Below are positions 1 to 26,657 of a DNA stretch of 64,000 bases, in pieces. How positions within the stretch are numbered: the first letter of the stretch is position 1; each line of letters starts with the position of its first letter. The notes below the pieces were generated by a model. That model saw only the letters and a program-made list of their open reading frames with translations. It made no database searches and was not told where the DNA came from. Origin of the DNA: Candidatus Latescibacterota bacterium (lineage in GTDB: Bacteria; Latescibacterota; UBA2968; GCA-2709665); NCBI GenBank assembly GCA_965219995.1, contig CBDCOX010000002.1, forward strand, positions 416,001-480,000, read 5' to 3'. The position numbers and the translations under genes were made by a program.

Positions 1-1049
1 GCCTCCGGTTCACTGCCATCCGGTCGTTCGAAGAACTCCCTGACGTACCCGACCTCCGCGGAACAAGCCTGCAACTCCCTGGAGCTGAAACCGAGACTGC
101 CTCCTGCCCGCAGCATGTCGCCAACGCCCTGAAAGAGCGCAACGAATCGTCCGGGCGTGAGGACCCGGTAACCCAGCAGGAACGCAAGGATAACCGCGAC
201 GCCAACTCCCACTGCCACGTGAAATCCCGTGGCAGGTATGCTCACAAAGACCTGGCGTTGTCGCTGGCCCAGCAGTCGGTCCCGCAGTACGTGGCGCATC
301 CTCCGCCAGCGCCCGGTCATCGGCTCGTGCAGGCCGAACAAACGCATTTCCTTCTGCTCAGATCGACCCGTCAGGATCCGGTTCACGTACCCGGCACGGC
401 GCTCCTCCGGTGTCTCGCCATAGGTGAACGCCATGAACATACGGTTCTGTCGGATCTCCAGGAGGACAAGCGGCGCCAGCGCTCCCAGCATGGCAACGGA
501 GATCCATATGGAAACCGGCGCGAACATGGAGGCGACCGAGACGGCTGTGACCACGGCCCTGGAGAAATGCAGCGCGCCGGAAAACAGCCGACCGAGCTTG
601 CGTCCCGGATCGCGCGCGCGTTCCAGACGGTCGTACGTCTCGCTGACGTCGAAGAACAGCAGGGGCAGCCTCGACGACCGATCCAGAAGGCGGCGGCCCA
701 GTACGTGGGAAAGATCCTGCTCCAGACGCAGGTAGAAGACATCGCGCAAATGCCACATCACATCGTTGGTAAACAGCTGGAGCAGGCCGAATGCAATCAG
801 CCACGCCAGGATATCGTCAAATCCGGTCGGGCCGCCGTCTGCCGCATCGACGACGGCGTCGACGAGATGCCTGGTCACGTGGATGAGCATGGCCGGCTGT
901 ATACCGAGGAGGACGTGTATGACAATCAGCCAGAGCGCGGCCGTCCTTCCGTGCACCCGGATGTGGCTCCAGGTCCAGCGCAGGTTGGCGAGAATGGCGC
1001 TGGCGCCCTCGCGACGGTTCCAGTATTCGAGATCGGATCTTGGCGGCAT
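1..1049 (-). CDS. ABC transporter fused permease/ATPase, N-terminal transmembrane part (runs off window edge; absent from ORF track)
   Basis: Manual minus-strand translation from ATG at 1049 (MPPRSDLEYW...) stays open to position 1. It has several hydrophobic helices and exporter-type motifs (FFDVSETYDRLERA, EQKEMRLFGL). Confidence 0.75.
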   Translation of the reverse strand, partial: MPPRSDLEYWNRREGASAILANLRWTWSHIRVHGRTAALWLIVIHVLLGIQPAMLIHVTRHLVDAVVDAADGGPTGFDDILAWLIAFGLLQLFTNDVMWHLRDVFYLRLEQDLSHVLGRRLLDRSSRLPLLFFDVSETYDRLERARDPGRKLGRLFSGALHFSRAVVTAVSVASMFAPVSIWISVAMLGALAPLVLLEIRQNRMFMAFTYGETPEERRAGYVNRILTGRSEQKEMRLFGLHEPMTGRWRRMRHVLRDRLLGQRQRQVFVSIPATGFHVAVGVGVAVILAFLLGYRVLTPGRFVALFQGVGDMLRAGGSLGFSSRELQACSAEVGYVREFFERPDGSEPE

Positions 1050-22951: not shown

Positions 22952-23205
22952 GGTTGAATCGCGAGGAGGTGCAGGGGCAGACGGTCAGGGGCGCCTTGCC
23001 CAGTGTTCGACGTGACACGGTGCGGCGATTGAAGTCGGATCCTGAAGACGGCAGATTATCGGCATTTTACCTGTTAGACGCCGCGGAAATCGGATCGGTT
23101 TCTGAAAACCGGCGTCGGATGATCCAGGCGACAGTGCAACTGTTGCGTGCCGCAACCGCGTCGTGCAAAATAAAAGCTTTGCGATTTCTCGGTAAGATCA
23201 AGAAC

Positions 23206-23241
23206 AAGAAAAGACACGCTGATTTCAGCGTGTCTTTTCTT
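23206..23241. terminator. Intrinsic terminator downstream of the redoxin operon
   Basis: aagaaaagacacgctga-tt-tcagcgtgtcttttctt inverted repeat. Confidence 0.75.
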
Positions 23242-23260
23242 CCAGATGGCTTCTTTTGGC

Positions 23261-24241
23261 TCAGGGCACGCGTTTTCCGAAGTTCTTCGCGAATTCCAGA
23301 AAGTCCGGAAAGTCGACCAACCCGTTTCCGTTCAGGTCGAAGGTGGCGTTGTCGGTGCTGAAGGCCTGGGCGAATGCGACGAAGTCGCTGAACCCGATTT
23401 CTCCGTCATTGTCGAAGTCGGCCCGGGGATTGACGGGGACAACGATGGCCGTTCCTGAAAGAGCGACGGTGACGCTGCTGTTTTCAGGGTCGTCACTGGA
23501 AATGGTAATGGTGCCGGAGAATGGACCGCCCTCCGAGGGTGTAAAGGTGATGTCGACTGTAGCGCTGTCGCCAGGCGCGACCATGAGTTCCGTCAGGCTG
23601 AACATGACGCCCTCGAGGTCGGATACCATGTTCGAAATGCTGAGGTCGGTCCCGCCGGTATTCTGCACGACCAGCTTCAGGGTTCGCGACTCGCCCGCCG
23701 GAACGTCTTCACCAAAGTCGAGCGATGTATTGGCGAGGCTGATTGCGGGCGGCGTAACGGTCAGCAATTCCCGGATACTCGCCGCCGCGGCGCTGAGACC
23801 GGAAGCGCCGCGCCCAATGTGGCGGACGATTCCCTCACGGTCCGCGACCAGCAACGTGTGGGTCCCGTGCGATCCCCTGATACTGCCCGCCCTCAGCAGG
23901 AGGGGAAACGTGATCGAGGTCGTCGACTGAAAACCTTGAAGTTGGGACTGACTGCCATTGTAGATGTCGAGCCCCAGGACCGCAACGCCGTCATCCTGGA
24001 ACGCCTTCCAGATCTGCTGTTCAATGGACGGACCCGCCGCCCTGCACGTGGGTCAGTTGTGGCCCAGGTAATAGAGGACCAGGACACCGCCCTTGTAGGT
24101 CGCCGAGGCGTAGGTCTTCCCGTCCAGCCCCGTAAGCGAGAACGTCGGTACCGCGTCGCCGACACTCTGGGCTTCCGCGGGTTCCGGCGGGTTGAGTCCG
24201 AAGAACAGCAGAAACACAAGGCACGCCGCGATTCGACTCAT
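23261..24241 (-). CDS. Putative exported selenoprotein: redoxin (UxxC) + Ig-like (ASH/choice-of-anchor-like) + dockerin-like domains, 326 aa
   Basis: ORFs 24053-24241 and 23261-23854 are in frame and joined by 66 open codons after TGA (24053-24055). Read-through gives LYYLGHN-U-PTC at the thioredoxin active-site position. Signal peptide present; C-terminal DFDNDGEIGFSDF...DLNGNGLVDFPDF. Confidence 0.85.
24026..24042 (-). promoter_or_regulatory. Candidate bacterial SECIS hairpin
   Basis: GGGCGG-CGGGT-CCGTCC begins 10 nt after the UGA; the apical loop starts 16 nt after it and has G in position 2. Confidence 0.65.
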
Positions 24242-24274
24242 CGAAGGCCTCCTTCAAGAAAGTGAAAGTTCGCG

Positions 24275-25873
24275 TCAGAAATGGGTTTTAAGTCGCATTT
24301 CCAGTCCACTGAACGGCAACACAAGATAGCATGTCCCCGATGTACACGCGGCGCCGCCTCTCCTGCGTCCGGCGAATACGAAGGCTTCGTATCTATCGAG
24401 GAAGGCGACGTTGAGACTGACCGCCAACCAGGTCCGCGATCCGGTTTCGATCCGGTCCGTCGTGACGTTATCGTCCACTTCGAACGGATCGTTGGTGCGA
24501 TCCAGAATGAGAGCGGCGCCCGCGCCCGAGGGATGCTGGAATGAAAACTGAGCATACACATCCCGGAACGTCTGCTCGTTTCGGGGAAGCCTGGCAGCGC
24601 GTCGGAACTGCAGATCGAAGCTCGTGACAGCCCCGCCGGGTGCGGTGGACTCGATCCCCGCGCCGGCGATCCTGTGCATTCGGATGCCCTTCAATTCGTC
24701 CTTGCCCCAATTCACGAACAGGCTGGTCGATATCGCGCGGCCGTGGTCTTCCCTGTGGTGGTCGATGTCCAGGCCGACGTACCGTTCATTGAAAGTCGTC
24801 GCGAATCCGGGCGCCAGTTCGTTCTTTCCCTTACTGATGTTTGCCGTCAGCGTCCCCATCCCGAAAATCGAATACGTGGCCTCCGCCTGGTAGCCCGTTT
24901 CCGTATCGGCAATCAGTGCATGGGTCGCCCGGTTGAGCAGGACGGCCGAGTGTTCGCGGACCAGGGAAGGGGGATCGTTGAAACTGAAGGCGAAATTCTC
25001 ATAGTCCTTGTATTCCAGGCTGAGACCCAGGTTGGAAATTCCGGCGTTGGCCGAAAGATACAGAGCGCTTCCGTCCACGTGGACGTCATTCAGCCCGGCG
25101 TATTCGGCGTAGACGGTCGCGTACAGATCAGAGAGTCCGGATGCCTCCAACGCCGGCGTGACGTCCAGTTCCAGGAAGCCCGACCAGGTTCGGGTCGAAT
25201 CGAGCCTGGAGGCGTGATGGCTGACCGCCGTAACGCCGGCCTCGATCTGGCTGGCAGGCCGTAGCGATACCTCGCCTCCGACAAGCCAGCTATCGCGCCG
25301 CGGCAGGTCCCGGAGCGGGTTACCCACTCGTACCGCGGGCGGAATATCACTTAATACGGGTCGCCCGATCAGGGCTTTGGCCCCGGCCCGCGGCCCGGTC
25401 CAGGTGGCCATGCTGCCCTCGAGGTCTCGCGAGGGCGAATAGCGTCGCCGGTATTGCCCGCTCTCCAGAATAACGCCCGGCAGATCGAATGCCCTGAGCG
25501 TAATACCCCGCCCCAGGATCGCATAATAGTTGCCCGCAACCAGCTCCACGGGTCCCTGCGTCCAGCGAAGGTGTTTCTGTGAAACATGCACGACCTGGTA
25601 TTCGACCTGCGATAGCGGCGTGCCGGGAGCGGGGTTGCGCCACGCATTGAAGATCTCCGCCCGAAGTCCGGCCTGCATGCCGTGCCGCGTGTAGTCGACG
25701 TCGAACTGCTCATAAAGCGACGAAGCCGCCAGTGAGTCCGAGCCCGGTACGCGTCCCCGCTGGATTTCGGTCAGGCTGGATGCCGTCACCTGAGCACCGC
25801 CCGGTTTCGACGTCACCAGCAGAAGGAGCATTGTCAGGCTATTTGCCAGTGCTCGCATCGGCGTTTGCCTCAT
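24275..25873 (-). CDS. DUF6029-like outer-membrane beta-barrel protein
   Basis: Signal peptide, GNYYAILGRGITLRAF, LEYKDY, NDPPSLVREH, C-terminal RRGGAACTSGTC...F. Start is 25873 or 25858. Confidence 0.7.
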   Translation of the reverse strand: MRQTPMRALANSLTMLLLLVTSKPGGAQVTASSLTEIQRGRVPGSDSLAASSLYEQFDVDYTRHGMQAGLRAEIFNAWRNPAPGTPLSQVEYQVVHVSQKHLRWTQGPVELVAGNYYAILGRGITLRAFDLPGVILESGQYRRRYSPSRDLEGSMATWTGPRAGAKALIGRPVLSDIPPAVRVGNPLRDLPRRDSWLVGGEVSLRPASQIEAGVTAVSHHASRLDSTRTWSGFLELDVTPALEASGLSDLYATVYAEYAGLNDVHVDGSALYLSANAGISNLGLSLEYKDYENFAFSFNDPPSLVREHSAVLLNRATHALIADTETGYQAEATYSIFGMGTLTANISKGKNELAPGFATTFNERYVGLDIDHHREDHGRAISTSLFVNWGKDELKGIRMHRIAGAGIESTAPGGAVTSFDLQFRRAARLPRNEQTFRDVYAQFSFQHPSGAGAALILDRTNDPFEVDDNVTTDRIETGSRTWLAVSLNVAFLDRYEAFVFAGRRRGGAACTSGTCYLVLPFSGLEMRLKTHF

Positions 25874-26378
25874 CGTCGCCGCCGGCATCCGGAAAAAGCG
25901 CCGCAACCGCAGCCAGTAACGCCTCGGCGTTTTTCGAGTTATACCCGACCTGCCGTAGCGCAATCTCCCCGTCGGGTGTGATCAGAAGCGTCGTCGGCAG
26001 GACGTTCACCTGCATTCGCCGCATCACCGCGCTGTCAGAGTCGAGGGCGATGGGGAAGTTAACCCTTCGCGCCCTGAGAAAGGGTTTCACCCGGTTCTGT
26101 CCGCGCGGACCGTCCACGTTGACGCCAAGAACCGTGAGCCCGGATTTTCCGTATTTCTCGTGGATCTTCTGTAGCTTGGGCATTGCCTTGATGCAAGGCT
26201 TGCAGTAGGTCGCCCAGAAATCCAGAAGCACGGGTCCCTTTGCCAGCAGGGTCTTGAGGTTGACCCGTTCGCCCTGCAGATTCCGGAGGTTGAAGTCGGG
26301 GGCCGAGGCGGCGTTCGCGGACGCCGCAGACAGTGTGATCGAGGCGGCAAGAGCCAGCGATTGAAGGGTCGATTTCAT
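25839..26378 (-). CDS. TlpA/ResA-like periplasmic thiol-disulfide oxidoreductase
   Basis: Signal peptide, APDFNL, DFWATYCKPC, LPTT. ATG at 26378 with GGGAG RBS. Confidence 0.92.
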   Translation of the reverse strand: MKSTLQSLALAASITLSAASANAASAPDFNLRNLQGERVNLKTLLAKGPVLLDFWATYCKPCIKAMPKLQKIHEKYGKSGLTVLGVNVDGPRGQNRVKPFLRARRVNFPIALDSDSAVMRRMQVNVLPTTLLITPDGEIALRQVGYNSKNAEALLAAVAALFPDAGGDDEANADASTGK

Positions 26379-26657
26379 CAGTCGAGTCTCTCCCTGATGT
26401 TTCAGCGGCGTTACGAGGAAGTTGCCGTTACACTGAAAAACGCCCGAAGCATCTGACCGGTTCCGGAACCCACGCTGACGCGCGCAATACACGGTGCGCC
26501 GGATTGACGTCGAATTGATTAACAATAACCGAAAGATCACGGCGCATCAAGCGCTATTTTGCTTTGTTTCATAGAGGTCGGGCAGGCGGCTAAACGGCCT
26601 GGCGGCTGAAAAACCGCGGGAGTAACGACGACCTCGATACCGACGATCCGTTTCCGC

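Follow-up and report, generated by a model that had tools for sequence, protein, structure and literature searches.

A probable exported selenoprotein of Candidatus Latescibacterota combining a UxxC redoxin with Ig-like and dockerin-like domains

Introduction

Redoxins in which selenocysteine (Sec, U) occupies the first place of a UxxC motif have been catalogued as selenoproteins since the mid-2000s (PMC2398784, PMC13188914). Table 2 of the Global Ocean Sampling (GOS) survey contains 'Prx-like 1' (pfam00578, UxxC), with 225 Sec versus 2,740 Cys sequences, and 'Prx-like 3' (pfam08534, UxxC), and the survey also mentions fusion forms (PMC2398784). Table 1 of another compilation lists 'Prx-like thiol:disulfide oxidoreductase' selenoproteins (PF00578; UxxC/UxxU) and 'Thiol-disulfide isomerase-like protein' selenoproteins (cd02966, TlpA-like family; UxxC) (PMC13188914). 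The selenocysteine insertion sequence (SECIS) of Escherichia coli is described as a stem-loop starting 11 nt after the UGA, the apical loop of which contains G23 and U24 and which has a bulged U17 (PMC8659212). Here, a redoxin of this kind is reported from a 64,000-nt stretch of a Candidatus Latescibacterota genome (contig CBDCOX010000002.1; the whole stretch is referred to as the window), the record of which gives 5.44 Mb in two contigs and 98.6% completeness. With high confidence, 24241..23261 on the minus strand of the window constitutes one gene that encodes a selenoprotein of 326 residues, probably exported, in which UGA codon 63 is read as Sec by way of a downstream hairpin and which may serve redoxin-type disulfide chemistry.

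Like the Prx-like selenoproteins, as far as they are described in the tables of these two sources, the protein has a PF00578/PF08534 domain, Sec in the first position of UxxC and a bacterial SECIS just downstream; also like them, it is predicted rather than characterized, and its gene is split by gene callers. Unlike theirs, going by Pfam and motif criteria alone, its redoxin domain is accompanied by a putative signal peptide, an Ig-like domain and a dockerin-like module. The proportion of Sec to Cys also differs from that tabulated for Prx-like 1 in GOS because Sec forms outnumber Cys forms here (61:2 among the copies checked; 142 of the 150 listed matches have one TGA). With the thiol-disulfide isomerase-like selenoproteins (cd02966), compared by their description only, it shares the TlpA-like fold and the UxxC motif. 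The Sec-redoxin would belong to either the Prx-like or the thiol-disulfide-isomerase-like selenoproteins, the Pfam domain and the motif of the Prx-like class both being present in it.

No report linking a selenoprotein with a dockerin was found in the open-access PMC Creative Commons and bioRxiv literature, outside of which lie supplements such as Figure S1 of PMC2398784 on fusion selenoproteins. As to Latescibacter and selenocysteine, a Latescibacter taxon appears in PMC8318568 only in a list of bins. An initial annotation of the locus, made from the nucleotide sequence, had not recognized its architecture as characterized. This stands for the Ig-plus-dockerin tail, which was not found described, but not for the UxxC redoxin, a kind of protein already catalogued. 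Because UxxC Prx-like selenoproteins have long been known, the protein is viewed as a new member with an unusual, putatively tethering tail and not as a new principle.

Results

Reading frame and conservation of the internal UGA

Two open reading frames (ORFs) are listed on the minus strand, one of 62 amino acids (24053..24241) and one of 197 amino acids (23261..23854; start codon TTG). When TGA is read as U, they become parts of one frame of 326 codons plus a terminal TGA (23263..23261), the sole internal in-frame TGA of which is codon 63 (24055..24053; read-through context GGVLVLYYLGHN-U-PTCRAAGPS). The initial annotation had the 62-residue ORF end at a TGA where the first Cys of a CxxC motif belongs and the frame run on, free of stops, through a redoxin body. 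Both statements proved correct: the TGA is codon 63 (YYLGHN-U-PTC), and the segments VAVLGLD, TFPLL and LVADREGIVR all lie in the same frame.

Homologs were collected by a six-frame search of 40 relatives, the matching places were fetched, and the codon aligned to residue 63 was located in each, which yielded 63 distinct copies from 39 genomes (64 raw matches, one of which, L060, repeats a place already in L042). At the putative Sec codon, the first place of U-P-T-C (24053..24055), 61 of the 63 copies carry TGA and two (L041 and L045) carry TGT for Cys; neither Trp nor any residue other than Sec or Cys was found at codon 63 in any of the 63. Whether homologs have Cys or a conserved TGA at this site, a question already raised by the initial annotation, is thereby answered with predominantly the latter. 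In other genomes of the genus, an ortholog with exactly one internal TGA was present in all 14 (75–87% identity), and further copies with one TGA, at 30–45% identity, occur throughout the family and the order. The columns of U63 and of the putative resolving Cys of the motif, Cys66 (24044..24046), are both invariant in an alignment of 21 proteins in which U was read as C. When the phylum was searched with the redoxin domain alone, 109 of 168 genomes gave a match at E ≤ 1e-10, as did 34 of the 52 genomes that are ≥90% complete and ≤5% contaminated. Among the 150 matches listed from this search, 142 contained one TGA, six no stop, one a TAA and one both a TGA and a TAG; another 22 matches exist beyond these 150, and where the TGA lies was verified for the 63 fetched copies only.

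The ratio of nonsynonymous to synonymous substitution rates (dN/dS) in 13 genus orthologs was 0.12 for codons 26–62 and 0.19 for codons 64–160, which indicates purifying selection in the read-through frame both before and after the UGA. A pseudogene, or a sequencing or assembly error at the codon, for which no favorable point was found, would fit neither these ratios, well below 1 on both sides, nor the recurrence of the TGA in 14/14 other genomes of the genus. In addition, a DNA contig from run X5, the study code of which differs from that of the best-matching runs, spans 23934..24195 without a single difference. Because this contig is identical and the TGA recurs in the other genomes, the TGA is not an assembly error, and the probability of any explanation of this type is considered negligible. 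Two of the three grounds for doubt named by the initial annotation, Trp-containing homologs and an assembly error, are thus contradicted.

As public annotation has it, the TGA is a true stop, so that a 62-residue exported peptide would be made beside a separately initiated Ig/dockerin protein of ∼197–264 residues. No public protein match at ≥65% identity covers more than 74% of the query, and those that bear a name are C-terminal pieces; the orthologs P0005–P0042 are fragments of 195–241 amino acids that begin after the TGA and, where named, are called 'choice-of-anchor D' or 'DUF1573', with organism labels that disagree (Gemmatimonadota versus Latescibacteria metagenome-assembled genomes). 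That the databases hold only such C-terminal pieces agrees with a stop at codon 63, as do the status of TGA as the commonest stop codon of the genome and the lack of significance of the hairpin in the single sequence (see below). However, the redoxin domain runs across the TGA; codons 64–129, from the TGA to the TTG of the 197-residue ORF, are open, and purifying selection extends over codons 64–160; Cys takes the place of the TGA in two otherwise collinear homologs; and 61 copies, some as little as ∼35% identical, have the TGA at precisely this codon. Furthermore, no Shine-Dalgarno sequence or start codon was noticed at a conserved place downstream, a feature for which no dedicated search was made. 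Termination at codon 63 is, therefore, highly improbable. The protein-database search had also been tried for the Sec/Cys question but returned almost only C-terminal halves, together with P0032, a full-length Cys form with NCPVC at the Sec site; the question was answered by the six-frame genome searches instead.

Sec machinery and genetic code

A profile search of the genome identified selA (558.9 bits), selB (366.8 bits) and selD (359.9 bits), all above the curated cut-offs, and a tRNA-Sec gene (selC), also above its curated cut-off (73.4 bits), which adjoins selB. Hence all four genes that the initial annotation had suggested looking for are present. The selD of this genome holds an in-frame TGA and itself encodes a selenoprotein (ARTCG-U-AAKV; G000:C2:2652952, plus strand, outside the window). 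TGA terminates 1,023 of the 1,854 ORFs of ≥400 codons in the genome, more than any other stop codon, as well as the gene described here, so the genetic code is otherwise standard.

These results bear on the possibility that UGA-63 is read as a standard amino acid, be it Trp, or Cys by a near-cognate tRNA, or through a variant code, in each case without Sec. Nothing specific speaks for such a reading. Apart from the use of TGA as a stop, it is opposed by the complete Sec machinery, including a Sec-containing SelD, by the nature of the site, which is the nucleophilic Cys position of CxxC and where homologs have Cys and never Trp, and by the conserved SelB-type loop 3′ of the UGA. It is regarded as extremely unlikely. 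Incorporation of selenium at residue 63 by the Sec machinery is, by comparison of sequences, almost certain.

The hairpin downstream of the UGA

The SECIS-like hairpin occupies 24026..24042. In the form common to the family, a stem of 24038..24035 with 24030..24027 closes a GGUC loop (24034..24031) that contains G23 and U24. An alternative register has six base pairs, with GGGCGG (24042..24037), a CGGGT loop (24036..24032) and CCGTCC (24031..24026), and its 5′ arm begins 10 nt after the A of the UGA. It was this latter hairpin that the initial annotation proposed; it is indeed present as placed, but its register is good in this genus only, and the element of the family is the GGUC loop at +22..25. 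Because the fold of the single sequence is not significant, stability of the hairpin was dropped as an argument and comparison was relied on.

For this comparison, 54 nt were aligned in 37 distinct sequences, with positions counted from the U of the UGA. The RNAalifold consensus is a 4-bp stem (columns 18–21 with 26–29) closing the GGUC tetraloop at +22..25. Pair 19–28 is unbroken in 37/37 sequences, by GU in 17, AU in 11 and GC in nine; pair 18–29 is GC in 28, CG in three and GU in one, and is unpaired in five. An 8-pair extension of the GGUC-loop register has a covariation score that was reached by only one of 500 shuffles and that beats every slid version. As a family element, the 6-bp register was rejected: its score was reached by 70 of 500 shuffles, and sliding it by +3 gives a higher one. 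Going by the printed sequences, the pairing of a third subgroup (GGGGCGGGUCCCGCC) follows a register different from both.

The loop position is distinctive also in comparison with other sites of the same genes. An uninterrupted stem of ≥4 bp with a 3- to 7-nt loop containing positions 23–24 is found in 61/61 Sec forms versus 23% of 12,566 other in-frame positions of these genes, which served as background, and GU at 23–24 together with such a stem is found in 54/61 Sec forms versus 149 of the background positions. For the Gly residue encoded in the loop, GGT is used in 55 of 62 matches, compared with 15.3% of Gly codons genome-wide, and synonymous diversity is the lowest in the gene at codons 62–81 (0.117 versus 0.298 gene-wide). 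In the organism's selD gene, a stem of 7 bp closes an identical GGUC tetraloop, at +21..24. At the terminal TGA of the gene described here, no SECIS-like element was found (best stem 2 bp, GAAG at +22..25). Of the Cys forms, L041 has lost the hairpin (2 bp), and the Cys paralog L045 (G020:C1:5121614-5121994; FFGFR-C-PVC) has kept a 5-bp stem at the SECIS position, with a GGCC loop, apparently a remnant from an ancestor with Sec. Compared with the E. coli fdhF-type SECIS, the element is alike in that its arm begins 10 nt after the UGA and in that G23/U24 are kept in 54/61 Sec forms, and unlike in that the stem register varies between subgroups of the family.

Several observations weigh against the reading of UGA-63 as Sec. 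The hairpin in the window is weak, having 4 bp when paired as in the family and 6 bp when paired as in the initial annotation; of 200 shuffled versions of the 40 nt from the UGA, 126 match or exceed that segment in stability (z = +0.44), and the structure in which the segment has its lowest energy is a different one. Seven of the 61 Sec forms have no GU at positions 23–24, and U17, which forms a bulge in the E. coli element and may be specific to that organism, is absent, with C17 in its place. Moreover, loop and stem fall into codons for a conserved A/T-G-P-S/R stretch, so that constraint on the protein adds to the conservation of the RNA. The assignment was derived from sequence comparison, and the genomes compared are kin, which means that the homolog counts overstate independence. 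Lastly, two RNA-library contigs (X19 and X20) that bridge the TGA site come from ∼90%-identical relatives and may hold DNA; the portion of them compared does not reach the TGA, and they were not counted as expression.

A scan of both strands of the genome for TGA, 18 nt and a GGTC tetraloop on a stem of ≥4 bp, with an open frame of ≥25 codons upstream and ≥40 downstream, returned two places in 5.44 Mb, one of which is this gene; the combination, unlike the hairpin by itself, exceeds what chance would give. When the spacing was relaxed to 14–22 nt, TGA plus GGTC hairpin gave 35 matches, most of them noise that lies out of frame in GC-rich DNA; the matches that seem genuine are just three, namely selD, the gene described here and a GPx-like candidate. 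The latter candidate selenoprotein (LVVNLASQ-U-GHTHQY; G000:C2:5234593, minus strand, outside the window) has 54 and 121 open codons on either side of its TGA and, from 21 nt after it, a stem of 7 bp that carries a GGUC loop. Two more matches with long stems are located at C2:3402328 (7 bp) and C2:3133980 (SGCG-U-FIV, 6 bp). An Rfam scan of 23200..24300 at E ≤ 1 returned no match, which says little because Rfam is not known to have a general bacterial SECIS model.

Domain architecture and predicted activity

The initial annotation had envisaged one 326-residue protein composed of a signal peptide, a Sec-redoxin, an Ig-like and a dockerin-like domain, and this composition was borne out by Pfam and NCBIfam, a PDB profile search, an AlphaFold2 (AF2) model and Foldseek. 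Judged by eye, residues 1–24 (24170..24241) resemble a type-I signal peptide, in which MSR is followed by a hydrophobic core and AEA, then QS. The pattern of AxA followed by Q or A is kept in aligned homologs, and the model has an N-terminal helix at residues 2–16. An extracytoplasmic location is, on these grounds, likely. Lipoprotein export via IAAC (residues 4–7) was considered and rejected, as this Cys precedes the hydrophobic core, downstream of which the AxA site is found. The AF2 model, based on 21 homologs, has a mean predicted local distance difference test (pLDDT) score of 81.4; confidence is high for the β-sandwich and the two-helix Ca-loop module and lower around the active site.

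Residues 27–161 (23759..24163) are a thioredoxin-fold redoxin of the TlpA/ResA/AhpC-TSA-like type, by Pfam, Foldseek and PDB profile search. PF00578 (AhpC/TSA) matches residues 27–116, across the TGA, with 49.2 bits (cut-off 26) and PF08534 (Redoxin) matches with 38.5 bits; 21/21 aligned homologs match PF00578. Foldseek places the domain on ResA, DsbE and TlpA-like chains (TMt 0.78–0.81), which have a thioredoxin fold with a central insert, and the profile search matches 2ls5, 3kcm and ResA. With ResA/CcmG(DsbE)/TlpA proteins (1su9, 3gl3 and 4nmu) and with 2ls5, the domain shares this fold (TMt 0.74–0.81), an active-site motif that starts helix 1, predicted export and a DsbD/CcdA-type electron donor in the genome. 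In contrast to ResA/CcmG/TlpA, it has Sec for the first Cys, a replaced cis-Pro and extra C-terminal domains. The best match, 2ls5 (a putative protein disulfide isomerase of Bacteroides thetaiotaomicron), likewise has no cis-Pro. A further related chain is the C-terminal part of Mycobacterium tuberculosis DipZ (2hyx and 5cyy; Foldseek ranks 2, 5 and 10; profile E 2e-6), in which a TlpA-like redoxin is followed by a β-sandwich in one exported chain. DipZ, in which this part is fused to a CcdA-like membrane part, differs in being Cys-based and in having no dockerin-like module, and with a root-mean-square deviation of ∼19 Å the domains match and their arrangement does not.

Disulfide reductase or isomerase activity rather than peroxidase chemistry is predicted, with modest confidence. 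It is a point against this assignment that the cis-Pro of TlpA/ResA redoxins corresponds to His127 in an alignment with 3kcm (VPETF); at the same position, distant family members have Asp or Glu, and the profile has Asp. The same selenoprotein might instead reduce peroxide, as a thiol or selenol peroxidase of the AhpC/TSA or GPx type that guards the envelope. The missing canonical cis-Pro would fit this activity, as would the best Pfam match being AhpC/TSA (PF00578), the name 'peroxiredoxin' given by its source to P0032, the sole full-length Cys form among the database proteins, and the presence of Sulfolobus Bcp1 peroxiredoxin among the Foldseek matches (rank 24). Peroxiredoxins have a conserved catalytic Arg at the cis-Pro-aligned position, whereas His or Asp/Glu, and not Arg, is found there in this family. 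Nearest by sequence and fold are ResA, DsbE and protein-disulfide-isomerase-like chains, and UxxC is a thioredoxin-type motif. Sec is regarded as typical of peroxidases in the discussion of GPX in PMC13188914, but the peroxiredoxin motif PxxxTxxC/U given there is absent: in L-G-H-N-U-P-T-C, U is at the place of the Thr and Leu is four residues before it. A peroxidase is the main functional rival and is considered rather improbable.

C-terminal to the redoxin, residues 165–266 (23444..23749) form an Ig-like β-sandwich of the PapD/ASH/HYDIN-like, 'choice-of-anchor D' type, according to Pfam, NCBIfam, AF2 and Foldseek. It matches PF22544 (48.7 bits) and PF07610 (41.5 bits), as a HYDIN/VesB-type domain over residues 165–263, as well as NF012200 (51.7 bits versus a cut-off of 45), is modeled as all-β with pLDDT of ∼90 or higher, and is matched by Foldseek to PapD-like domains of HYDIN/CEP192. 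In two orthologs from the genus (L039 of G006 and L040 of G014), the Ig-like domain is duplicated, giving 432 residues compared with 326–333.

Residues 272–322 (23276..23428) contain a dockerin-like pair of EF-hand Ca-binding loops, DFDNDGEIGFSDF and DLNGNGLVDFPDF, each followed by a helix in the AF2 model (284–293 and 311–320). EF-hand_1 scores 28.6 bits (cut-off 25.4), with EF-hand matches over residues 274–322, and the profile of the C-terminal tail matches a solved dockerin, 2y3n_B, at E 1e-7. Dockerin_1 matches six of 21 homologs at E ≤ 0.01. Assignment as a dockerin is weakened by the scores of the window's protein for Dockerin_1 (PF00404; 14.5 bits versus a cut-off of 22.9) and dockerin_GC (NF041540; 25.7 versus 29), both below the cut-off.

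Sec and Cys forms in the family

In a tree of the 63 redoxin domains with the neighboring CKPC redoxin as outgroup, two independent changes are required to place the two Cys forms, both of which sit among Sec forms; a starred clade (96/90) unites one of them with two Sec paralogs from its own genome. Because the two sit separately among Sec forms, the tree suggests that Cys forms arose by replacement of Sec by Cys; its outgroup branch is very long (3.85), its root is a midpoint root only, and the bootstrap has not settled. In four genomes of the genus, a tandem second Sec copy is found directly downstream (L028–L031 in G004, G011, G009 and G002). These copies are 64–68% identical, have the motif U-D/N-L-C and possess their own GGUC hairpin; the genome of the window has one copy only.

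Gene neighborhood and occurrence

The gene is preceded by a Shine-Dalgarno sequence, GAAGGAGG (24248..24255), 6 nt 5′ of the ATG at 24241, as read from the sequence, and is followed, 20 nt after the terminal TGA, by an intrinsic-terminator-like hairpin of 16 pairs with a T-rich tail (23206..23241). All features of the locus are on the minus strand. Immediately upstream lies the gene for a DUF6029 protein (24275..25963; PF19494, 55.4 bits) that ends in KTHF and the stop of which is 33 nt before the ATG of the selenoprotein; because this gap is so short, the two genes are probably co-transcribed. The homolog has a DUF6029 gene immediately 5′ of it in 18 of 20 loci, among them three loci at only 53–54% identity. 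From its C-terminal Phe, one may guess that the protein is an outer-membrane barrel. Further upstream, 25839..26540 encodes a TlpA-like redoxin with a Cys-only C-K-P-C motif (PF00578, 87.6 bits; PF08534, 71.7 bits), the start codon of which is uncertain. The order of the cluster is, thus, CKPC redoxin, DUF6029 protein and Sec-redoxin, with tilS and ftsH downstream. Elsewhere, the genome has a DsbD_TM gene (71.9 bits).

The dockerin-like module occurs at 62 places in the same genome (E ≤ 1e-5). A separate tblastn search with the module gave 90 matches at E ≤ 1e-3, 44 of which end ≤11 residues from the stop, so that they are C-terminal. Two cohesin domains exceed the Pfam cut-off (G000:C2:3130598-3130963 and G000:C2:2367381-2367701), one of them near the end of a 1654-residue protein with a signal-peptide-like N-terminus, a FlgD_ig match and a sub-threshold Por_Secre_tail match. 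The ∼60 dockerin-like proteins and the cohesins of this genome look like a cohesin-dockerin display system; tethering of the Sec-redoxin through a cohesin-like partner is a tentative proposal of low probability.

Three of 21 X5 contigs compared are ≥99% identical to the window, and the run is labeled sponge metagenome. Other matching runs are labeled sponge, coral or marine metagenome; these labels were not used for assigning a habitat.

Discussion

The features described above can be combined into a probable route from mRNA to envelope. SelB together with Sec-tRNA(Sec) would read UGA-63 as Sec, SelB being recruited by the short hairpin, the apical loop of which displays G23 and U24 and has the same GGUC sequence as that of the organism's selD. 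The last TGA of the gene, which has no such hairpin, would end translation. The type-I signal peptide would then take the protein across the inner membrane through Sec translocation, and the N-terminal TlpA/ResA-like domain would reduce or shuffle disulfides of the envelope, with Sec63 as the nucleophile and Cys66 as the resolving residue. Electrons would probably be supplied via the DsbD/CcdA-type membrane protein of the genome and possibly also by the neighboring CKPC redoxin. The Ig-like domain may act as a spacer between the enzyme and the dockerin-like tether, and the C-terminal double EF-hand may attach the enzyme to a partner in the envelope or at the surface.

An extended picture, in which the enzyme is displayed outside the cell on a cohesin-bearing scaffold as one of ∼60 dockerin-tagged proteins of a probably sponge-associated bacterium, and in which Sec is ancestral throughout the lineage and Cys secondary, is speculative and, taken as a whole, rather unlikely. 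If Sec were ancestral in this lineage-wide family, this would be the reverse of the usual picture, in which Cys gives way to Sec.

Both the dominance of Sec over Cys in this lineage and the Ig-plus-dockerin tail are unusual. Reading the gene as one corrects an annotation error that is repeated across public databases; as the public records hold C-terminal pieces, the redox-active half is invisible to surveys of function in the lineage. The family adds a well-supported, Sec-dominated subfamily to the exported UxxC redoxins, and its three registers of the SECIS stem around one fixed G23/U24 loop should be useful for training finders of bacterial SECIS elements and selenoproteins. If, furthermore, the dockerin-like tail does tether the enzyme to a surface scaffold, the protein would place selenium chemistry at the cell surface of a symbiont.

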